Assembly: GCA_035503075.1 (NCBI GenBank)
Contig: DATJTT010000019.1
Span: forward strand, 11,929-75,928
Origin: Solirubrobacteraceae bacterium
GTDB taxonomy: Bacteria > Actinomycetota > Thermoleophilia > Solirubrobacterales > Solirubrobacteraceae
Length of the DNA: 64,000 nt
Direction of reading: 5' to 3'
The notes under the pieces are model-generated. The model searched no databases. It was given only the letters and a program-made list of their open reading frames with translations, and had not been told where the DNA came from. Of this stretch, positions 9,922 to 54,127 are shown piece by piece. Both the position numbers and the translations under genes were made by a program. Every line of letters starts with the position of its first letter. The stretch's first letter is position 1.

Positions 9922-11880
9922 TCACTGCGCCGCCGCCGAGCTGCAGCCGCCCGCCGGCGCGACCCCCGCGAAGCGCTGCACGCGGTTGTTGTCGGCGTCG
10001 GCGACCAGCAGCGCGCCCGCGCAGTCGATCGACAGGCCCGCGGGGTCGCTCAGCTCGCCCGGGGCCGCGCCAGGCGCGCCCCATGCGCGCACGAAGCGCC
10101 CGTCTGCGTCGAACTCCTCGATGCGGTCGTTGCCGCCGTCCGCCACGAACACCTCGCCGCGGGCATCCACTGCGATGCCGTCCGGGGACTCGAACCTTCC
10201 TGGCCCGCGACCCGCGCCGCCCCACGCGCGCACGTAGCGACCTGCTGCGGTGAACTCCGCGATCCGGTCGGCGCCGACCTCGACCACGTACACCGCGCCC
10301 GACCGCGCCGTCGCGAGCGCGACCGGAGCGTGAAGCCGGGCGGCGCTCGAGCCCGCATCGCCCCAGGACCCGAGCACCGCGCCCGCCGGGGAGTAGCGCT
10401 TGACCAGGCCTTCGCCGGTATCCGCGACGTACACGTCGCCTTCGCGACCAACCGCCAGCCCGTCCGGCCGCTCGAGGCGTCGCGCTGCGGGCGTCCCAAC
10501 CCCGCCGCCGAGCGTCCCGAGCAGTTCGCCTTCCGCGCTCAGGTGGCGCACCAGGTCGTTTTCCTGGTCTGTCACCCACAGCGTGCCGTCAGCAGCGAGC
10601 GCGATGGCGACGGGCTCGAACAGGTGTTCACCGAGGATCGCCGCGCCGCCGTAAAAGCTTTCGCGGTAGGCGAGCCGGTGGTCGAACAGCTCCACGCGCC
10701 CGCCCACCGTGTCCGCGACGAGCGCCCCGCCTTCGGGCGTCGCGGCGACGTCGCGCGGCAGCATGAACTGGCCATAGGAGCGAGCGGAGACCCCCCAGGC
10801 GCCGAGCCGCCGGCCCGTCGCGCCCAGGATGTCGACCTCATCGGCGGCGGCGTCGGCCACATACACCAGGCCGGAGCGCGAGACGGCGACGGCGCGCGGG
10901 TAGCTCACCTCTTCCGCGCCGAAGTTCGGGTGCAGGCCTTCGCTCGGGCCCTGTGAGGGCGCAAGCGGCCAGGCGGCCAGGAAGCGCAGCTCGGGGCTCA
11001 GCTCAACGACGCGGTGGTTGTTGTCGTCGGCCACATACACCCGTCCGGCCGGGCCGACGGCGACGTCGAACGGGCTCGTGAACTGTCCTTCCCCCGACCC
11101 GAGGCCGCCGGCCTCGCGGGCATATGGACCCCGGGTCCGGAACGCGACGATCCGATCGTTGCCCGTGTCCGCCACGTACAGCTCCTCGCCGCTCACCGCC
11201 AGGCCGTGCGGGCTCTCCAGCTGCCCGGGACCATGGCCCGGCCCGCCGAGGACGAGCGCGTGCGTGCCGTCCAGCGTGAAGCGCTCGATCCGATCGTTGC
11301 CCGTGTCCGCCACGTACACGAAGTCGCCGGACACCGCGATCCCGCCGCCCGGGGGCACGCCCGGCCCGCCGCTGCCGAACTCGAACTGTCCGGGCCGCGA
11401 GCCGGGCTCGCCCCAGGCGCGCACGAAGCGACCTTCGGCATCGAACTGCTCCACGCGGTCATGTTCCGAGTCGACCACATAGACCTCGCCGGCTGCGCTC
11501 ACCGCCAGACCCCCGACCGCGCCGAACTGTCCGGCGCCCGTGCCGCGCGCGCCCCACTGGCCGAGGAAGCGCCCGCCCGCGCTGAAGCGCTGCACGACAT
11601 AGCTGTACTGGTCGGCGACATACACATCGCCGTCGGGCGCGACGGCGAGCGCCTCCGGGTAGCGCAGCACGCCTTCGCCTCGCCGCCCGAGGATCGCCAC
11701 CGAGCTGTACGGACACGGCTCGGCGCCCGGACACGCCCGGCCATGCGCGCCCGCCGCCCGCCGCGCGCGTTCACCGGCACCCGATGGCGCGTCGGCGAAG
11801 GCGCCCAACGCCACCGTCAGCGCGAGCGTGAGCGCGACCAGGGCGTATAGGCTGAGCACGAGGCACTGCAGGCGGTACAT
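9922..11880 (-). CDS. secreted NHL-repeat protein (12 repeats, probable double beta-propeller)
   Basis: N-terminal hydrophobic signal; 12 P.G.AV..G.VYVAD..N.R..F repeats counted by eye. Confidence 0.85.
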   Translation of the reverse strand: MYRLQCLVLSLYALVALTLALTVALGAFADAPSGAGERARRAAGAHGRACPGAEPCPYSSVAILGRRGEGVLRYPEALAVAPDGDVYVADQYSYVVQRFSAGGRFLGQWGARGTGAGQFGAVGGLAVSAAGEVYVVDSEHDRVEQFDAEGRFVRAWGEPGSRPGQFEFGSGGPGVPPGGGIAVSGDFVYVADTGNDRIERFTLDGTHALVLGGPGHGPGQLESPHGLAVSGEELYVADTGNDRIVAFRTRGPYAREAGGLGSGEGQFTSPFDVAVGPAGRVYVADDNNHRVVELSPELRFLAAWPLAPSQGPSEGLHPNFGAEEVSYPRAVAVSRSGLVYVADAAADEVDILGATGRRLGAWGVSARSYGQFMLPRDVAATPEGGALVADTVGGRVELFDHRLAYRESFYGGAAILGEHLFEPVAIALAADGTLWVTDQENDLVRHLSAEGELLGTLGGGVGTPAARRLERPDGLAVGREGDVYVADTGEGLVKRYSPAGAVLGSWGDAGSSAARLHAPVALATARSGAVYVVEVGADRIAEFTAAGRYVRAWGGAGRGPGRFESPDGIAVDARGEVFVADGGNDRIEEFDADGRFVRAWGAPGAAPGELSDPAGLSIDCAGALLVADADNNRVQRFAGVAPAGGCSSAAAQ

Positions 11881-30920: not shown

Positions 30921-33320
30921 TCAGCGACGCAGCAGGTACGTGCGTGTGACGGTGGTGCGCAGCCCGGTGGGGCTGGCGGCGACCACGTGCACGTGCGCGC
31001 GCAGCTCGTCCGAGCGGCCGAGGGCGCGGCGCAGCCGGCGCACGGCGCCGGCCGCGAGCGCCAGGCGCACACGGGCTGCCTTGCGCGCCCGCAGGGCGCG
31101 GGCGGCGGCGATCAGCGCCACCGAGCGGCTCCGGCGCAGGGGGGAGAGGGTGGCGGTGACGAGCACGCGGCAGTCGCGCTTGCAGCTGACGGCGAGGGTG
31201 AGCGCCCGGTCGGAGAGCACGCCCGAGCTGGGCGGGACGGTGAGGCGCAGCACCGGGGGGAGGTTCGGCGGGGGCGGCCACGTTCCCGGGGCGAGACAGC
31301 CGGTGCCGGCGGGGGAGTCCATCTGGAAGCGCTGCACGCGGTTGTTGTCGGTGTCGGCGACGTACACGTCGCCTTCGCAGCCGATCGCGATGGCGGTGGG
31401 TTGGGAGAAGGACCCGAGACCCACCCCGCGCAGGCCCCACTTGTAGAGGAAGCGCCCTTCGGGCGCGAACGCCTGCACGCGGTCGTTCCGGCTGTCCACC
31501 ACGTACACGTCGCCGGCGGCGTCCACGGCGATCCCGGCGGGGGAGCGAAAGCGTCCGTCGGCGGTGCCTCCGGAGCCCCATTCGGCGAGCTCGGCGCCGC
31601 CCGCGGAGAGCTCCACGACGCGGTCGTCGCCGGTGTCGGACACGTACACGTCCCCGTCGGGCGCCACGGCGACCCCTTCGGGATGCTCGAAGCCCGTCGC
31701 GCCGCTGCCGGCGGCGCCGTCGGCCCCTTCGGCGCCCCACTTGGCCTGCAGCTTGCCTTCGGGGCCGTACACGAGGATCCGGTTGTGGTCGCTGTCGGCG
31801 ACGTAGGTCTGGTGGCTGACGGGGGAGATGGCCACGGCGCCGGCGCCCTCGAGCTCCGCCCCGCCGAGCTCGGCGGGCCCGCCGATTTCGCCCAGGTAGG
31901 CGCCTTCGCCCCACAGGCGCACGATGCGCGAGTTGCCGGTGTCGGCGACGTACACCGACCCGGCCGAGTCGACGGCGATGCCCGCGGGGGAGGAGAAGAG
32001 GCCGTCGACCCCCCCGGCGCCCGTCCAACTGCCGAGGTAGGAGTCGCTGCCGGCGGCGAAGCGCTCGATGCGCCCGTCGACGGTGTCGGCGACGAGCAGC
32101 TCCCCTTCCGGTTGCACGGCGAGGCCGGTGGGGGCGGTCAGCTCGCCGGGGCCGCGGGCGGAGACGCCGAAGGAGCGCATGTATTTCCCGTGGGGGTCGA
32201 ACACCTCGATCCGGTCGTTGGCGGTGTCGGCGACGTAGGTGTCGCCGGCGGGGTCGCTGGCGAGGGCGCGCGGGAAGTCGAGCTCGCCCGCTTTCGAGCC
32301 TTCTTCGCCCCAGGCGCCGGCGGGGCGCAGCCGGGGGCTGAGCTTGACCACGCGGTCGTTGCTGTCGTCGGCCACGAACACGTCCCCGGCGGCGTCGAGG
32401 GCGACGCCGTAGGGGAAGCCGGGGTGCGCGGGACCGTCGCCGGCGATCGGGGCCTCGCCTTCGTAGACGCCTTCGGGGCTGAACTTCTCGACGCGGTCGT
32501 TGTCGTCGTCGGAGACGATCACCTCGCTGTCGTCGGCGGCGACCCCGCGGGGGTAGTCGAACTGGCCGGGGCCGGAGCCCTCGGTGCCCCACGCGAGCGG
32601 TTCGCCCCCGTCGAGGTCGAAGCGCTCGACGCGGTCGTTGCCCGAGTCCGCCACGTACACGTGGTCGCCGGCCACCGCGATGCCGCCGCCGGGGGGCTGG
32701 CTGGGGTTTAGCGAGGAGCCGAAGTCGAACTCCCCGAGGCCCGACCCGCGCCTGCCCCACTGGGTGATGTATTCGCCGTCGGGGCCGAACTTCTCGATGC
32801 GGTCGTGGCTCGGGTCCACGACGTACACGTCGCCGGCGGCGTCGACGGCGAGGCCGGAGACGGGGCCGAACTGCCCCGGCCCGGCGCCGTAGGAGCCCCA
32901 CTGGGTCTCGAACTGCCCATCGGCGCTGAACTTCTGGACCACGTAGCCGAGCTGGTCGGCGACGTACACGTCGCCCTCGGTGTCCACCGCGACCGCCTCG
33001 GGGAAGCGCAGCACCCCTTCCGCGCGCTGGCCGATCGTGGTGACGTGGGCGTACGGGCAGGGGGCGGTCCGGGCGGGACCGGATCCCGGGCAGGCTTCGC
33101 CGGGGACGGGCTCGATGGCGGCTTCGCCCTGGCCCTGCGGGGACGGCGCCGGGGGCGACGCCGCGGGCGGCACGGCTCGCCCGGCGGCGGCGGGGGCGCC
33201 CGCCACCCACGCCCACGCGCACAGCGCGATCAGGGTCGCGAGCGCAGATGCGGGGGCGAGCCTGCGCCGGGGGAGCACGATCAAGGCATGAGAGCACGAA
33301 CGTGCGCGTGCGCGTCGCAC
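30921..33320 (-). CDS. secreted NHL-repeat protein (12 repeats) with a C-terminal beta-rich domain
   Basis: Signal-like N-terminus (true start uncertain, possibly about 33286); 12 NHL repeats; paralog of 9922-11880. Confidence 0.85.
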   Translation of the reverse strand: MRRARARSCSHALIVLPRRRLAPASALATLIALCAWAWVAGAPAAAGRAVPPAASPPAPSPQGQGEAAIEPVPGEACPGSGPARTAPCPYAHVTTIGQRAEGVLRFPEAVAVDTEGDVYVADQLGYVVQKFSADGQFETQWGSYGAGPGQFGPVSGLAVDAAGDVYVVDPSHDRIEKFGPDGEYITQWGRRGSGLGEFDFGSSLNPSQPPGGGIAVAGDHVYVADSGNDRVERFDLDGGEPLAWGTEGSGPGQFDYPRGVAADDSEVIVSDDDNDRVEKFSPEGVYEGEAPIAGDGPAHPGFPYGVALDAAGDVFVADDSNDRVVKLSPRLRPAGAWGEEGSKAGELDFPRALASDPAGDTYVADTANDRIEVFDPHGKYMRSFGVSARGPGELTAPTGLAVQPEGELLVADTVDGRIERFAAGSDSYLGSWTGAGGVDGLFSSPAGIAVDSAGSVYVADTGNSRIVRLWGEGAYLGEIGGPAELGGAELEGAGAVAISPVSHQTYVADSDHNRILVYGPEGKLQAKWGAEGADGAAGSGATGFEHPEGVAVAPDGDVYVSDTGDDRVVELSAGGAELAEWGSGGTADGRFRSPAGIAVDAAGDVYVVDSRNDRVQAFAPEGRFLYKWGLRGVGLGSFSQPTAIAIGCEGDVYVADTDNNRVQRFQMDSPAGTGCLAPGTWPPPPNLPPVLRLTVPPSSGVLSDRALTLAVSCKRDCRVLVTATLSPLRRSRSVALIAAARALRARKAARVRLALAAGAVRRLRRALGRSDELRAHVHVVAASPTGLRTTVTRTYLLRR

Positions 33321-47744: not shown

Positions 47745-47820
47745 AGTGGAAAAAGGCACACCTGCCGCGAGGCGGGCTCGCAAAGCCAGGGGTCTCTCGC
47801 AGATCGCCCAGCTGCCCGGC
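47745..47820 (+). ncRNA. c-di-GMP-I (GEMM-I) class riboswitch
   Basis: GGCACACC / TGCC-GCGA-GGCG GNRA stem / GG / CGCAAAGCC / GGG-GTCT..AGAT-CG-CCC / GCTGCC mirrors known GEMM-I aptamers; P1 is only about 3 bp. Confidence 0.82.
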
Positions 47821-47854
47821 AAGTTCATGAGTCTACACAAGGAGCTTTGCCGTT

Positions 47855-48322
47855 ATGTTTCACTTTTTCCAATCGAGAAAGGGGCGCCTGGCGTTCGGCC
47901 TCGGCGTCTGCCTCATCCTCGCGGCAGTTAGCGCGGTCGCGATCGCTTTCTGGACGGGCGCCGGCGAAGGGACGGGCACCGTCAAGGTCAACCACACCAG
48001 CCCTTCCCTCGAAGTGAGCGGTAGCCAAGCCGAAAACCTGTATCCGGGCGGCAGCGCCGCGATCACGGTTAAGGTCAAGAACACCGACGCCGGCGCGAAC
48101 GGCTACCTGGGCAGGCTGGAAGCGGAAGTCACGGGAACCTCGGCGGCGGAATGCAAAAGCCAGTGGTTCGAAGTCACGCCTGCGTCGCAGGAACCGGCCA
48201 CCGTGCTGGCGCCCGGCGAAACCAAGGAATACTCGGTGAGCCTGAAGATGAAAGAAGAAGCCAGCGTCAACCAGAATGCCTGCAAGGGCGCCACGGTCAC
48301 GATCCACTACACGGCCTCCTAG
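47855..48322 (+). CDS. secreted TasA/camelysin-like fibre subunit (candidate major pilin)
   Basis: Signal ending AIA|FWTGAGEG; NLYPGG...VKNT; C-terminal NQNACKGATVTI resembles TasA-family NL.PG and QN..QG motifs; Cys pair. Confidence 0.65.
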   Translation: MFHFFQSRKGRLAFGLGVCLILAAVSAVAIAFWTGAGEGTGTVKVNHTSPSLEVSGSQAENLYPGGSAAITVKVKNTDAGANGYLGRLEAEVTGTSAAECKSQWFEVTPASQEPATVLAPGETKEYSVSLKMKEEASVNQNACKGATVTIHYTAS

Positions 48323-48349
48323 CCCGGCTGGCCAGGCCGACCGGCTGGG
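48323..48349 (+). terminator. stem-loop between pilin and adhesin genes
   Basis: CCCGGCTGG / CCGGCTGGG, 9 bp with two GU pairs, immediately after the stop. Confidence 0.45.
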
Positions 48350-48371
48350 GTTGCAGAGAAAGGCGACGGCG

Positions 48372-50762
48372 ATGATCAGGCTCAAGCGAATCGCGGTTGC
48401 GACCGCCATTGCGTTGGGCCTGATCGCCCCAGGCGCACACGCGTACTGGTCGGGCAGCGGCGAAGGGAGCGGATCGGCGAGTCTCGCGACGCTCTCGCCG
48501 CCGGCGATCACGAGCGTGACACCGGGCGCTGACACGGTCGAACTGGAATGGTCGCCGGTCACGCCGCCCGGCCCCGGCGTCGTCGAGTACTACGTCACGC
48601 GCGATGGCGGCGCTCCGGGCAGCGGCTGCCCGGGCTCAAGCTCGCCTTCGACGACGACCCGCTGCACCGACACGGGCGTGTCGATCGGCACGCACCAATA
48701 CACCGTCACAGCCGTGTGGCGCAGCTGGACGGCGGAGAGCACAACCAGCACGGTGAGCGTCACATTCGGCGCCGCCACGCACTTCCAAGTAGAAGCCGCG
48801 AGCTCCACGCCCACCGCAGGCGAAGCGGATGACCTCACGATCACCGCCAAGGACGCTGCCGAGAACACAGACGCCAGCTACTCGGGCACGCACAGCCTGA
48901 TCTTCGAAGGCCCCTCCGAAGCGCCCAACGCCACCAAGCCGGTCGTGATCGACCAAGCGGGCGTCGCAAGCAAGCTCGGCCAAGCGACTCCGATCACCTT
49001 CAGCGAAGGCAAGGCGACGGTATCCGGATCGGCCAACGGAGCGCTGAAGCTCTACGACGCGCAGACCACCTCGCTGCAGGTCAAGGAAGGCAGCATCGAA
49101 GGCGCCTCGGGCTCCCTGACGGTCAAAGCGGGCACGGCCAGACGCTTGAGCGTGCCAACGCCAAGCGAACGCGAAGCGGGCGCCGCCTTCAACCTGACGC
49201 TCACCGCACTCGATGAATGGGGCAACGTCGCAACCGGCTACGCGGGCGCAAAGGCGCTCGCATTCAGCGAACCTGCCGACTCGCCCAGCGGCAAGGCGCC
49301 GAGCTATCCGGCGAGCGTCACGTTCACCGCGGGCGTCGGCACCGCCTCCTCGATCAAGCTGTACGACGCCCAGACCACGACGCTCGAGGCCAGCGAAGGC
49401 GCCATCGAAGGCGTCTCGGGCTCGTTCCTCGTCAAGGCGGGGCCGTCCAAGAAATTGAGCGTCACGACGCCAAGCGAACAGGAAGCTGGCGCCGCCTTCA
49501 ACGTCGCGCTCACGGCGATCGACGAATGGGGCAACACCGCCAAGACGTACACGGGGGCAAGGACGCTCACCTGGAGCGGCCCGTCGAGCTCCCCCAGCGG
49601 TCAGGCACCCGAATATCCCGCCTCGGCCACCACGGTGAGCTTCAGCGAAGGCGCGGCAACGGCCTCCGCGATCAAGCTGTATGACGCCCAGAGCACGACA
49701 CTCAAGGCCAAGGAAGGCAGCATCGAAGGGATCTCGGGCTCCTTTACCGTCAAGGCCGCGGCGCCGGCCAGCCTGAGCGTCTCGACCCCGTCCGAACCGA
49801 CCGCGGGCGCCGCCTTCAACGAGACCGTGACTGCCTTGGACGCCTGGCACAACGCGGCCAAGACCTATACCGGCGCAAGGACGCTCACGTGGAGCGGCCC
49901 GTCGAGCTCTCCCAGCGGTCAGGCACCCGAATATCCCTCCTCGGCCACCACGGTGAGCTTCAGCGAAGGCGCGGGCACCGCCTCCGCGATCAAGCTGTAT
50001 GCCGCTCAGACCACGGCGCTCAAAGTGAACGAAGGCTCGCTCTCGGGCACGTCCGGCTCCTTCGCCGTCAAGGCGGGCACGACCACCGACTTCACCATGC
50101 CGACGCCAGCCGAACAGCAGGCGGGCGTCGCCTTCAGCGTGACGCTCACGGCAACCGACGAATGGGGCAACCTCGCAAAGACCTACGCCGGTTCGAAGAA
50201 ACTGACCTTCAGCGAACCATCCGACTCCCCCGACGGGCAGGCGCCAAGCTACCCGGCTGCTGTCACGTTCAGCGAAGGCGTGGGCACGGCCTCGGCGATC
50301 AAGCTCTATGACGCACAAAACACGCAACTGAAGGTCAAGCTGAACACGGTCGAAGGCAGCTCGGGCTCCTTCACCGTGGATGCGGGCGCTGCCGAACACC
50401 TCGCTTGGTCACAGCCAGAAGTGACCAGCGGCGGCTTTAAATCAGGGAGCTCTCCGTTTGATTGCACGACCACCAGCATTGGCCACGGCGCCTTGTTCAA
50501 GGCCCGCGTGAGCGTTACCGATGCCTACGGGAACATCGTCAGCAACCTGGGCGCGACGATCACGGCGAAGGTGGAAAAGGCAAGCGGCGGCGGCACGCTG
50601 GCCAACTCTCGCGGCCTCACGATCCCCGCGTCCGGTCCGGCGGAATCCTCGGCGAGCTTCGAATACACGAGCCCTACGTCGGGCTCGAGCGAAGCGGTGC
50701 TGGCGCTCACCGGCGAAACGGGCACGGCCTATACCGAAGCAGAAGCGCACATTAAATACTAG
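48372..50762 (+). CDS. large secreted FN3/Ig-like repeat protein (candidate adhesin / minor fibre subunit)
   Basis: Signal AHA|YWSGSGEG; FN3-like domain with a Cys pair; five repeats of about 105 aa with D.WGN motif; no LPXTG or TM anchor. Confidence 0.75.
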   Translation: MIRLKRIAVATAIALGLIAPGAHAYWSGSGEGSGSASLATLSPPAITSVTPGADTVELEWSPVTPPGPGVVEYYVTRDGGAPGSGCPGSSSPSTTTRCTDTGVSIGTHQYTVTAVWRSWTAESTTSTVSVTFGAATHFQVEAASSTPTAGEADDLTITAKDAAENTDASYSGTHSLIFEGPSEAPNATKPVVIDQAGVASKLGQATPITFSEGKATVSGSANGALKLYDAQTTSLQVKEGSIEGASGSLTVKAGTARRLSVPTPSEREAGAAFNLTLTALDEWGNVATGYAGAKALAFSEPADSPSGKAPSYPASVTFTAGVGTASSIKLYDAQTTTLEASEGAIEGVSGSFLVKAGPSKKLSVTTPSEQEAGAAFNVALTAIDEWGNTAKTYTGARTLTWSGPSSSPSGQAPEYPASATTVSFSEGAATASAIKLYDAQSTTLKAKEGSIEGISGSFTVKAAAPASLSVSTPSEPTAGAAFNETVTALDAWHNAAKTYTGARTLTWSGPSSSPSGQAPEYPSSATTVSFSEGAGTASAIKLYAAQTTALKVNEGSLSGTSGSFAVKAGTTTDFTMPTPAEQQAGVAFSVTLTATDEWGNLAKTYAGSKKLTFSEPSDSPDGQAPSYPAAVTFSEGVGTASAIKLYDAQNTQLKVKLNTVEGSSGSFTVDAGAAEHLAWSQPEVTSGGFKSGSSPFDCTTTSIGHGALFKARVSVTDAYGNIVSNLGATITAKVEKASGGGTLANSRGLTIPASGPAESSASFEYTSPTSGSSEAVLALTGETGTAYTEAEAHIKY

Positions 50763-50967: not shown

Positions 50968-52299
50968 ATGAAAGGTCTGTTTGACCCTGCTGACCCCGGG
51001 CCGGTTGGGCTGGACCGGGTCGTTGCGCTGGCCCAGCGCCATCTCGGACTCGACGTCGTCTTCGTCGCCGAGCTGACGGGCGCCGGGCAGGTCTATCGCG
51101 CGGCCGCCGGAGACGTGGCGTCGTTCAATATCGTGGTCGATGGTCCGGCCTGCGACGCCGCGTTCTCTCGAAGACTGGTGGCAGGCGAGGTGCCGAGCTT
51201 CATCGGCGACACGGCAACCGAGTGCGTCGGTGGGCTGCCGGGTGCTTGCGAAGCGCACGTGGGCTCGGTCATCGGTGTCCCGTTGCGACTTTCAGGCGGG
51301 ACGCCATATGGAGTTCTCTGCGGCTTCAGCCACGCGGCGGACAGTACCCTCGACGAGCGCGACGTCGGCTTCATGTCGATGCTCGGCGAGCTCATTGCCT
51401 ACGATCTAGACGGGAGACGCAGCGAGGAGCTGATCCGGGAAGACATCCTGCGGTTGATCGAGAACGAGAGCGTCCAGGTGACGCAGAACATCGAGATCGC
51501 CTACCAGCCGATCATCGATCTGCTTCGCGGGCACTGTCTGGGGATCGAGGCGCTCGCCCGATTTCCGGAGCCATTTGCCGGGCCTGATGTCACGCTCGCC
51601 GCCGCGAGGACGGTGGGCCTTGCTCTGGAACTTGAACGCCTGCTGATCGTTCAGGCCTGGAAGATGATCGCGTTGCTCGGCCCGGGGCAGTTTTTGGCGC
51701 TGAACGTGTCCCCGGAAGCGTTGGTGGAGCTCGCTCGTCGCGCGAACCTCCGCGAGGATCTCCCACTGAGCCAGCTCGTCGTGGAGGTCACCGAGCACCA
51801 AGTGGTCGAGAGCTACGCCGCTCTCCACAGCGAGCTCGCGCCGCTGCGCGAGCGGGGATTGCGTATCGCGGTCGATGACGCGGGCGCTGGGTACGCGTCG
51901 CTGCGCCATGTGCTGGAGCTGCGACCGGACTTCATCAAGGTCGATCGCTGGCTAATAGACGGAATCGCCGACGATCACGCCCGGCGCGTCGCCGTCGGCG
52001 CGTTCCTGTCGCTCGCCTTGGATCTCGGGTCCAGCGTCGTCGCCGAGGGAGTCGAGCGCCCAGCCGACCTTGCCGCCGTCCGTAGCCTCGGGCTCCATGC
52101 GGCGCAGGGATACTTGCTCGGCAGGCCAACCACCAGCCAGGCTGCCCTGTCCCAATGGATCGGCCCCTCGCCGGCTGCACAGGGGCATGCGCCGCTGGCA
52201 GCGCGGAACGGGCTTGCGCGGACCCGGAAGACCGCGGCCAGGCCCAATACCGCGGCTAGGCCGGCCACGCCGCGCAAGAGGCCCGCTACGCCTTCCTAG
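50968..52299 (+). CDS. GAF-EAL c-di-GMP phosphodiesterase
   Basis: GAF (IGVPL...YGVLCG); AYQPI, EALARF, EVTE, DDAGAGY, IKVD, EGVE, QGY intact; GAGGAG before ATG 50968. Confidence 0.9.
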   Translation: MKGLFDPADPGPVGLDRVVALAQRHLGLDVVFVAELTGAGQVYRAAAGDVASFNIVVDGPACDAAFSRRLVAGEVPSFIGDTATECVGGLPGACEAHVGSVIGVPLRLSGGTPYGVLCGFSHAADSTLDERDVGFMSMLGELIAYDLDGRRSEELIREDILRLIENESVQVTQNIEIAYQPIIDLLRGHCLGIEALARFPEPFAGPDVTLAAARTVGLALELERLLIVQAWKMIALLGPGQFLALNVSPEALVELARRANLREDLPLSQLVVEVTEHQVVESYAALHSELAPLRERGLRIAVDDAGAGYASLRHVLELRPDFIKVDRWLIDGIADDHARRVAVGAFLSLALDLGSSVVAEGVERPADLAAVRSLGLHAAQGYLLGRPTTSQAALSQWIGPSPAAQGHAPLAARNGLARTRKTAARPNTAARPATPRKRPATPS

Positions 52300-54127
52300 G
52301 GCCCGGCGCGGTCTTTCGGGTTTTGCTTCGCGTCACACGCAGCGGCGACGCCAGCCCCTCACGCCGCAAGCCCGGCGCTCGTGCGGCTCGGTTGCGCCCC
52401 GGCTGGCCACGCTGGAAGCTGGTCGCCTCGGAGTCGAGGACGGGCAGGCCGCGCCCTTGCTTCTTGGACCTGTACATCGCCCCATCGGCGCGCTTGACGA
52501 TCTCCTCGGCCGTCATCGCCCCGACCCGTGCGCATGCTACCCCGACGCTCGCACGCACTTCGACGGGATCGTTGGAGAGCGCGAATGCCGTGCTCAGCGA
52601 CGCGCATATCCGGTGTGCGACCTGGATGGCGACCTCGGGCCCGGGGACATCCCGCAAGAGAACGAGGAACTCGTCGCCACCGAGGCGCCCGACGTGGTCC
52701 TCGCCTCGACTTGCGATCTTCAGACGCTCGGCCACAAGCACCAGCAGCTCATCGCCGGCGGCGTGGCCGAGGTTGTCGTTGACGGGCTTGAACTCGTCGA
52801 GGTCGATATAGATGACCGCGGTCATCGTCGAGCCGTCTCCTTCGAGCTCTCGTCGTACCGCAGCCAGGGTCGCTGCACGATTGTAAACACCGGTGAGGGC
52901 GTCAAATGTGGCGCGCCTCTCGAGCTCGAGGCGCGCTCGCGCGCTGTCTGTGACGTCGAGCACAGATGTGATCGCCCCGCTTACCCCGCCGCTCGGGCGC
53001 ATCAGCCTGCGGATGCTCATGAGCGCCGATCGCCGCTCTCCAGACGGCAGCACGAAATCGACCTCGACGTCTTGATCGACGCCCTCATCGAGCACCCGGT
53101 CGAGCGCCGTCTCGAACGTCGCCATAGCATCTCGTGTCAGAGTCCCAAGCAGGGTCGCTACCTCCGGTGCCACGCTTGGCTTGTGACCGTCGGAAGCCGG
53201 CGATGGCCCGTCGACGCGCGAGCTCACGTAACCCGAGCCACGGAGGATGTCCAGCAGACGGGCATTGTGGTATACGACGTTGCGGTTGGTGTCGAGTTGG
53301 AAAAGCCCCTCCGGCATTCCGTCGGTGAGGCGGCGTAGCAGCTCCTCTCGCTCCGCGAGCGCCTCCTGGGCCGCCATCTCGGCCGATACGTCGATTATCT
53401 CGACAAGCACGTGGTTGGAGTCCGCTTGGTTCAGGTAGTTGTGCAGCGTGCTGTCCACCCACATCCAACTCCCGTCCTTGCGCTTGTGGCGCCGACGCGT
53501 GTGCTGATCACGTCGAGTGGACAGCATCGTAAGCCAGCCCTCGATCACGCGCCCCTGGTCTTCCGGGTGGATCTGTTCGAGGATCGACTGGCCGATGAGC
53601 TCCTCGCGCGTATATCCGAACATCTGCGTGAACGCGTCGTCACATTCGAGAACGATGCCACCCTCATCCTCCATGAGCGTCGAGAACCGCGGCGCAGCGG
53701 GCGGCAGCTCCTGGTCGTCGTCGCACGGCTCAGCTGCGAGCTCGTTCGTAGGAATGATCACGCACAACAAAACGCCATGGATCTGACGGAGATCGAGGAA
53801 ATGCAGCGTCGCCCAGCGAGACGGCTTGTCCAGCATGCGCACCTCGCCCTTGGCCGCGCCGTCGTGTTTCGCGCGCTGCCAAAGATCGACGACCGTCGCG
53901 CGGTCGTCAGCGATGACGCCGTCGATCACCGCCCGTCCCTCGATCGCTGCCTGCCCCCACAGCGCCACGGCCCCGGGGATTGGGACGATCAAGCCATTGC
54001 TCGAAAGTCCGCAAACAAGCGCGTCGGGGTGCTCACGGAGCAACGCTTCCGCCGCCCGCTCGACCTGCAGGGTGGTCTGGTTGGCAAGCATTGGGTGTTG
54101 ATCGGGTTGGACGGTTGGGTTTGACAT
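52286..54127 (-). CDS. PAS/PAC-GGDEF diguanylate cyclase
   Basis: PAS domains; DALTGVYNR, DLDEFKPVND..GH..GD, I-site RGED, GGDEF intact. Confidence 0.92.
   Translation of the reverse strand: MSNPTVQPDQHPMLANQTTLQVERAAEALLREHPDALVCGLSSNGLIVPIPGAVALWGQAAIEGRAVIDGVIADDRATVVDLWQRAKHDGAAKGEVRMLDKPSRWATLHFLDLRQIHGVLLCVIIPTNELAAEPCDDDQELPPAAPRFSTLMEDEGGIVLECDDAFTQMFGYTREELIGQSILEQIHPEDQGRVIEGWLTMLSTRRDQHTRRRHKRKDGSWMWVDSTLHNYLNQADSNHVLVEIIDVSAEMAAQEALAEREELLRRLTDGMPEGLFQLDTNRNVVYHNARLLDILRGSGYVSSRVDGPSPASDGHKPSVAPEVATLLGTLTRDAMATFETALDRVLDEGVDQDVEVDFVLPSGERRSALMSIRRLMRPSGGVSGAITSVLDVTDSARARLELERRATFDALTGVYNRAATLAAVRRELEGDGSTMTAVIYIDLDEFKPVNDNLGHAAGDELLVLVAERLKIASRGEDHVGRLGGDEFLVLLRDVPGPEVAIQVAHRICASLSTAFALSNDPVEVRASVGVACARVGAMTAEEIVKRADGAMYRSKKQGRGLPVLDSEATSFQRGQPGRNRAARAPGLRREGLASPLRVTRSKTRKTAPGPRKA

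Follow-up and report, generated by a model that had tools for sequence, protein, structure and literature searches.

A conserved gene pair of uncultured Solirubrobacterales with a shared N-terminal peptide and a c-di-GMP-I-class leader: a possible system for an extracellular fibre

The stretch of DNA considered here (the window; 64,000 nucleotides (nt) of contig DATJTT010000019.1, Solirubrobacteraceae assembly GCA_035503075.1) contains a two-gene operon of an uncultured soil bacterium of the Solirubrobacterales, in which a small gene is followed by a large one and the two encoded proteins carry the same kind of peptide directly after their signal peptides. The pair is a conserved unit, and the pair, the shared peptide, and a riboswitch of the cyclic di-GMP (c-di-GMP) class in the leader of the small gene are conserved together. 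The gene pair and the riboswitch suggest an undescribed surface-fibre system. In the reading preferred here, which draws on sequence comparison and stops a little short of being probable, the pair would form a c-di-GMP-riboswitch-controlled operon for an extracellular fibre or matrix, with the shared strand joining the small subunits and the large protein sitting at one end.

The gene pair and its shared peptide

Both signal peptides end in A-x-A and lead into the pattern [FY]-W-[ST]-x-x-G-E-G-[ST]-G, the small protein reading ...AAVSAVAIA followed by FWTGAGEGTGTVKV and the large protein passing from the signal peptide MIRLKRIAVATAIALGLIAPGAHA into YWSGSGEGSGSASL (coordinates in Table 1). A six-frame search of the 64 kb with the regular expression A[FYW][WF][STN]xxG returns only these two sites, both at the end of a hydrophobic signal segment, and the shared peptide of the gene pair is a real observation beyond chance. 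Among 88 close homologues of the small protein, W33, T34, E38, and G39 are invariant. In an alignment of 137 distant relatives, the residues at −3 and −1 (A29 and A31) are conserved in at least 90 %, positions 1 and 2 after the cut are Y and W, positions 3, 5, 7, 9, and 11 carry S or T in 98, 74, 72, 81, and 70 % of the sequences, and positions 6, 8, 10, and 12 carry G or A in 96, 94, 91, and 82 %; outside the body of the protein, this is the best-conserved stretch of the family. This two-residue period indicates an extended chain in which glycines line one face and hydroxyl groups the other, and the conserved alanines at −3 and −1 argue for cleavage, which would leave the aromatic pair as a free N-terminus. 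Secretion of both proteins, with cleavage at one kind of site, is very likely.

The initial annotation had described the two mature N-termini as near-identical in pattern, which is correct for the window pair but does not extend to most relatives. The peptide of the large protein mostly reads YWSNTGQANASA in other genomes, so the part that is generally shared comprises only AxA before the cut and [FY]W[ST]xxG[EQ] after it. Identities between the small and large peptides range from 3 to 9 of 14 positions across genomes (6 in the window), and the 12-residue likeness of the two peptides is unusual and special to the window genome. The bodies of the two proteins had been called unrelated, and they show no similarity; in the window and in 46 further-examined loci of the order, the body profile matches the small gene only.

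These 46 Solirubrobacterales loci come from species-representative genomes, and in 39 of them a motif-bearing large open reading frame (ORF) starts at most 300 nt downstream of the small gene. The pair is adjacent in 5/5 long contigs, flanked by unrelated genes. Close homologues at 58 % identity or higher number 246 for the small protein, more than 1100 homologues were counted for the large one, and all close relatives belong to uncultured Solirubrobacterales or Solirubrobacteraceae genomes. The exact sequence of the locus was found in two wetland DNA metagenome runs only, and no RNA-seq run with the sequence was found. The G+C content of the window is ~70 %. For the large gene, an independent gene call agrees with the ATG at 48372 as the real start and not position 48276, where the mechanical ORF begins. 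In some Solirubrobacterales genomes the small gene occurs two or three times, at separate loci (L019, L052, and L057 in one metagenome-assembled genome (MAG); L020 and L051; L032 and L036); L052 and L057 lie ~17 kb apart on one contig, with no recognizable motif-bearing large gene downstream.

The spacer between the two genes had been annotated with a stem-loop that was proposed to bias stoichiometry toward the small subunit. A GC hairpin can be drawn there (minimum free energy −30.4 kcal/mol), but it is no stabler than shuffled sequences (z = −0.19), it has no U tail, and in relatives the spacer ranges from 49 to 207 nt, with its length, sequence, and fold all unconserved. On these grounds a role of the hairpin as a terminator or attenuator is rejected, and the proposed effect on stoichiometry is unsupported.

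A c-di-GMP-I-class aptamer in the leader

The 5′ leader of the small gene contains a c-di-GMP-I-class aptamer of the GEMM-I clan, which was absent from the initial annotation. With 60.8 bits (E = 4.3e-13), the match to RF03167 exceeds the gathering score of 59; it covers model positions 1–80 of 80 and ends ~19 nt before the Shine-Dalgarno sequence and 34 nt before the ATG. Equivalent aptamers occupy the same place in L004 and L009 (RF01051, 44.5 and 36.5 bits, above the gathering score) and in L008, and an nhmmer search with a profile of four aptamers finds one at the same distance in 39/46 genome loci. None was found in L007, where the riboswitch has been lost and the upstream spacer of 847 nt (L007 9155–10000, = L039) holds short direct repeats of the type CCCGCC(T/C)AATCAAT.

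The probable ligand of the leader aptamer is c-di-GMP, and its binding probably controls translation initiation, whether by switching it on or off. No terminator-like site occurs on the + strand between the aptamer and the start of the small gene, which makes translational control likely. The aptamer identifies the gene pair as an operon of secreted proteins that is probably under c-di-GMP control. Genes of secreted or surface proteins are the typical context of GEMM riboswitches, and the window resembles known GEMM-I cases in carrying a full-length aptamer above the gathering score in the 5′ leader of such genes; it differs from them in that the Solirubrobacterales host and the regulated gene family are undescribed in the literature searched.

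Several further features of the leader and its surroundings were observed. The first codons of the small gene (47855–47875, AUGUUUCACUUUUUCC) and the conserved GGAAAAAGG on the 5′ edge of the aptamer complement each other and are paired in the minimum-energy fold of the whole leader; many relatives also start with M-F/S-R-F-F, so this pairing could belong to the expression platform. An anti-Shine-Dalgarno pairing seen by eye in the window was unsupported by ensemble calculations over 37 loci and is rejected. Downstream of the gene pair, a GAF-EAL gene of the c-di-GMP phosphodiesterase type and a PAS-GGDEF gene of the diguanylate cyclase type overlap tail to tail by 14 nt. A gene pair for making and breaking c-di-GMP adjoins an RNA that probably senses c-di-GMP in the window genome, an adjacency that is not conserved in other genomes.

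Protein architecture and comparison with known fibre systems

In scans of Pfam and NCBIfam, no model reaches its threshold for either window protein. An exhaustive profile search extends the family of the small protein to 1344 cluster representatives at E ≤ 1e-3, nearly all of them 145–170 residues long and matched over their full length. The family is characterized by a signal peptide, the sequence A-x-A with Y-W-T-x-x-G-x-G-x-G-x-A directly behind it, an L(Y/V)PGG turn, the elements C...WF and NQ(D/N)ACKG...T(I/L)xY, and an immunoglobulin-like (Ig-like) sandwich of ~105 residues with two conserved cysteines. The latter (C100 and C143) are invariant among the 88 close homologues, and N76 and Q140 are the sole nearly invariant polar residues in the 137-sequence alignment. 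The named family members are all labelled 'hypothetical protein', one of them from an Actinomycetota MAG, and a homologue search with a diverse profile returned only an abundant Solirubrobacterales clade and no new names.

A first AlphaFold model of the small protein from a shallow alignment reached a predicted local distance difference test (pLDDT) score of 62.9 and was uninformative in Foldseek, and modelling was repeated with a diverse alignment. The second model (AlphaFold2) has a mean pLDDT of 85, with values of 96–98 for residues 50–155, and shows eight strands in a compact Ig-like sandwich, preceded by an extended segment without secondary structure (residues 31–50, pLDDT 71–83). Foldseek finds no match to this model in the PDB at E ≤ 1e-3. 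Its best matches there are generic beta-sandwiches (ASH/PapD-like, PmoB, macroglobulin, and CARDB domains), and the pilus subunit chain of a FimD-tip complex (9fy9_F) is among the insignificant ones. PDB sequence and profile searches with the small-protein alignments find no relatives. In two giant gliding-motility-associated proteins of the Flavobacterium type IX secretion system (P0302 and P0316, ~2740 residues), the family profile matches 8–10 repeated stretches at profile positions 18–74; this match is confined to the LxPG hairpin region and so points to a generic Ig-like element, not kinship, and the two proteins are rejected as relatives.

The large protein consists of the peptide, a fibronectin type III (FN3)-like domain, five Ig-like repeats, and a C-terminal domain. 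The FN3-like sequence pattern is conserved in L011, L012, and L059–L062, and the L011 relative passes the Pfam fn3 model (30.3 bits), while homologues of the large protein give weak LtfC-like and Ig-like Pfam matches. Three and a half of the five Ig-like repeats make up a tandem DNA array with a 318-nt period, and the lengths of homologues range from ~580 to 1130 residues, which together suggest gain and loss of repeats.

The initial annotation had taken NLYPG...KNT and NQNACKG as TasA/camelysin-like motifs and had suggested a TasA-like filament. The NLYPG...N hairpin is a generic Ig/CARDB-type element, and NQNACKG has no counterpart in TasA. PF12389 (Peptidase_M73) does not match the window small protein at E ≤ 1. 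The same model matches 11/137 remote relatives at E ≤ 0.01 (best E 2.5e-6), where the inspected matches score 15–20 bits against a gathering score of 22.5, cover only profile positions ~3–101 of 196, and hold their register through the signal peptide, the N-terminal segment, and the first hairpin but no further. Comparison of the family profile with B. subtilis TasA by hhalign (TasA sequence checked against 8AUR) gives a probability of 5.6 % over 21 columns, in which only NLYPGG...N is placed on NLKPGD...N. The structural comparison proposed alongside the annotation has the same outcome, with TasA outside the top 50 Foldseek matches in the PDB. The sub-threshold PF12389 matches, the hhalign probability, and the lack of a counterpart to NQNACKG leave membership of the TasA family not established; at most, the pair would operate in the manner of TasA/TapA.

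The shared peptide itself resembles, at the sequence level, the signal region of SipW-dependent (TasA/TapA-type) proteins. The corresponding model, TIGR04088 (SipW-dependent-type signal peptide), matches 47/88 close relatives of the small protein at E ≤ 1; four of these relatives scanned singly score 17.8–20 bits against a cutoff of 19, one of them above it, one large-protein N-terminus scores 14.5 bits, and the window proteins have no match. As the initial annotation had stated, the window holds no sortase motif, pilus ATPase, or SipW gene: Pfam finds no sortase or T2SSE-type ATPase in the window and no S26/S24 or SipW-type peptidase in the window or the examined neighbourhoods, a regular-expression search finds no S26 signature, and neither translation has a visible LPXTG, the C-termini reading ...HYTAS and ...AEAHIKY with no hydrophobic tail.

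The arrangement of the pair is the same as that of TasA/TapA and AbpA/AbpB. In B. subtilis (TasA/TapA/SipW; PF12389; 8AUR, 5OF1), the mature TasA chain starts at A28, residues 28–38 act as a donor strand, and the N-terminus of TapA resembles them. The likeness to the window pair comprises a small major protein encoded together with a larger partner, signal peptides that seem to be of one unusual kind, each leading into a mature chain with an aromatic residue at its start, and weak in-register similarity over the signal peptide and the first hairpin. The window family differs in its ~105-residue Ig-like body with a conserved cysteine pair, compared with a jelly-roll of ~200 residues in TasA, in a strand rich in Gly, Ser, and Thr where that of TasA is hydrophobic, and in control by a c-di-GMP riboswitch in place of SinR; in addition, there is no significant sequence, profile, or fold match to TasA and no sipW nearby. 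Similarly, in Pyrobaculum calidifontis (7UEG), the gene for the pilin AbpA is followed by that for AbpB, a larger multi-domain beta-sandwich protein proposed as both the supplier of the first complementing strand and an adhesin, and a generic signal peptidase does the processing, the locus having no dedicated one. The window shares with it the order of a small gene and a larger multi-domain partner gene and the lack of a dedicated peptidase in the locus, whereas AbpA is an archaeal TasA-like jelly-roll with no sequence or fold link found to the small-protein family.

Modules, proposed assembly, and alternatives

Eight remote clusters, together with a body-only profile searched against all fetched loci, give three classes of protein. 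Small proteins with peptide and body (class i) occur in all eight clusters. Proteins with the peptide and then FN3, and no body (class ii), range from 146 residues (L061, peptide and FN3 only) to more than 3700 residues (L062), and the window large protein belongs here, since it has the peptide and no match to the body profile. In class iii (Table 1) the peptide is missing; an ordinary signal peptide or anchor leads into N-terminal Ig-like domains, and the body domain stands at the C-terminus. The usual gene order in the remote clusters is i, iii, ii. Peptide and body thus behave as separable modules kept in one gene cluster, and the three classes are the polymerizing, acceptor-only, and donor-only types that a head-to-tail polymer would need, an indirect argument drawn from comparison. 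In L012 (300–1322), peptide and body are fused to a cysteine-rich C-terminal extension (repeated C-x-NG-x-x-x-x-C), which is followed by another domain.

A donor-strand-like head-to-tail assembly of the small subunits is plausible on this pattern of domains. Cleavage, probably by a signal peptidase encoded elsewhere, would let each protein begin with [FY]-W and an extended strand with a glycine face and a hydroxyl face. The strand of one subunit would bind the Ig-like body of another small subunit and so build a head-to-tail fibre or matrix polymer outside the cell. Since the large protein carries the strand and lacks a body to accept one, it could occupy only one end, where it would present its long stalk of Ig repeats in the way proposed for TapA with TasA and for AbpB with AbpA. 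The initial annotation had cast it as an adhesin cap, which is too narrow a label: the conserved part is the peptide with FN3, which make up the whole protein in one relative. More tentatively, the same parts may constitute a widespread unannotated fibre of Actinomycetota with a strand-and-body subunit, a body-only end, and a strand-and-FN3 end with or without a stalk, which would self-assemble outside the cell by strand complementation with no sortase, chaperone-usher system, pilus ATPase, or dedicated peptidase, and with a c-di-GMP riboswitch in Solirubrobacterales. Chaperone-usher pili (Fim/Pap) follow a similar three-subunit logic of strand plus acceptor, an acceptor-only FimH-like tip, and a strand-only or terminator subunit, and the body-only proteins of L010, L012, L059, and L062 have a FimH-like layout; this likeness is architectural only and not significant, and the present loci differ in lacking a chaperone, an usher, and an outer membrane, their hosts being Actinomycetota.

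A number of results weigh against the fibre proposal. The monomer model of the small protein resembles a complete 8-strand sandwich, the Foldseek matches to donor-strand pilins are insignificant (FimF chain, E 9.5e-3; CanA, E 0.07), and TasA is missing from the top matches of this high-confidence model. In most relatives, the peptide of the large protein departs from that of the small one after position 7, and within-genome co-variation of the two is absent (permutation p = 0.94); a Gly/Ser-rich peptide might just as well serve as a flexible linker or as a determinant for a peptidase or for glycosylation. No class iii gene occurs within 4 kb either side of the Solirubrobacterales loci. For the leader, the best Rfam model is the c-di-GMP-I-GGC variant, from which the window RNA differs by an A at the consensus G (CUCGC-A-AAGCC), and an ensemble calculation of ribosome-binding-site accessibility over 37 loci gives no clear on/off signal.

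The main rival explanation takes the shared peptide as a determinant of export and cleavage only, a SipW-type or 'alternate' signal peptide recognized by an archaeal-type signal peptidase encoded elsewhere, so that the pair would be a small Ig-like matrix or accessory protein co-regulated by c-di-GMP with a large adhesin and no polymer would form. It is somewhat unlikely, though it accounts for the complete sandwich of the monomer model and the missing co-variation of the peptides, and among curated models TIGR04088 alone matches the region repeatedly (47/88; 17.8–20 bits against 19) and gives its name to some JGI annotations. However, no S26 or SipW-like gene lies beside any of ~60 loci examined, and the conservation runs 12 residues past the cleavage site with a strand-like period, further than a peptidase would require. 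In the same clusters, body-only paralogues are served by ordinary signal peptides, so export of the body does not depend on this signal.

If the N-terminal segment were instead an uncleaved signal anchor, with YW at the membrane interface and the Gly/Ser/Thr stretch as a linker, helix and juxtamembrane contacts would hold the proteins together side by side, and the small protein would be a membrane partner of the large one. The shallow-alignment AlphaFold model predicts a helix at residues 8–25, no LPXTG, hydrophobic C-terminal tail, or other anchor is visible elsewhere in the large protein, and some homologues faintly match DUF1616 and FliL-like membrane-protein families. An anchor is nevertheless improbable, as the small residues at −3 and −1 before the aromatic pair (at least 90 % conserved) are typical of cleaved signals and unneeded in an anchor, the hydrophobic stretch of the signal is poorly conserved in sequence, and the TIGR04088 motif class is cleaved in TasA. 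Covalent joining by sortase-type transpeptidation or BsaA-type isopeptide bonds, in place of strand complementation alone, is very improbable. BsaA combines strand exchange with an Asn-Lys bond, and its model TIGR04090 gives weak matches to only 4–6 members, with a best E of 0.005 among the close relatives and of 2.2e-4 among the remote ones, but neither window protein has an LPXTG, the window has no sortase, and the 137-sequence alignment of the wider family holds no conserved Lys or Glu and no Asn-Glu-Lys triad, N76 and Q140 being its only near-invariant polar residues.

Few donor-strand fibres are known in single-membrane organisms (TasA, BsaA, and archaeal bundling pili). If the fibre proposal is true, a second, structurally different subunit family, with a small disulfide-bonded Ig-like body, a glycine/hydroxyl strand, and more than 1000 sequence clusters common in soil and wetland Actinomycetota, would show a wider origin or diversification of this assembly principle. 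It would also make biofilm and matrix formation testable in the abundant uncultured Solirubrobacterales, for which the riboswitch link names c-di-GMP as the probable controlling signal, and the GEMM regulon gains a new gene family. If the peptide is an export signal only, it would still define a new and sharply delimited class of signal peptides without a neighbouring peptidase.

Table 1. Features of the gene pair, its leader, and adjoining genes in the window, with class iii proteins of remote clusters (aa, amino acids)
Feature	Location	Strand	Description
c-di-GMP-I-class (GEMM-I clan) aptamer	47746–47820	+	Rfam RF03167; 5′ leader of small gene
Shine-Dalgarno AAGGAG	47839–47844	+	10 nt before ATG; leader conserved in relatives
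Small gene	47855–48322	+	Encodes 155 aa
Small-protein signal peptide	47855–47947	+	aa 1–31, ends A-I-A; basic n-region, hydrophobic stretch, A at −3/−1
Small-protein shared peptide FWTGAGEGTGTVKV	47948–47989	+	aa 32–45; proposed mature N-terminus and assembly strand
Small-protein body	48002–48319	+	aa 50–155; Ig-like beta-sandwich of ~8 strands, C100 and C143, LYPGG and NQNACKG motifs
Intergenic spacer	48323–48371	+	49 nt; GC hairpin drawable, indistinguishable from chance
Large gene	48372–50762	+	Encodes 796 aa; ATG at 48372, independent gene call agrees
Large-protein signal peptide MIRLKRIAVATAIALGLIAPGAHA	48372–48443	+	aa 1–24, ends A-H-A
Large-protein shared peptide YWSGSGEGSGSASL	48444–48485	+	aa 25–38
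FN3-like domain	48486–48761	+	~aa 39–130, two cysteines; always after the peptide in this partner class
Five Ig-like repeats	48762–50387	+	aa 131–672, ~106 aa each
Tandem DNA array in large gene	49047–50191		Tandem Repeats Finder: period 318 nt, 3.6 copies, 75 % identity
C-terminal domain and stop	50388–50762	+	aa 673–796; conserved in homologues; no LPXTG, no hydrophobic tail
GAF-EAL gene (c-di-GMP phosphodiesterase type)	50968–52299	+	Pfam, called gene; downstream of pair
PAS-GGDEF gene (diguanylate cyclase type)	52286–54091	−	Pfam, called gene
Class iii protein	L010		355 aa; body-profile E 1.4e-17
Class iii protein	L012		501 aa; body-profile E 7e-16
Class iii protein	L059, 10558–11781		407 aa; body-profile E 2.7e-20
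Class iii protein	L062		323 aa; body-profile E 1.5e-18

The other genes of the window are metabolic or regulatory and include hydrolases, dehydrogenases, MFS transporters, a P450, TetR regulators, a thiolase, a sigma factor, and two NHL-repeat proteins. The latter are beta-propeller proteins of 652 residues (9925–11880, − strand) and 799 residues (30924–33320, − strand), and they are paralogous by their Pfam profiles.

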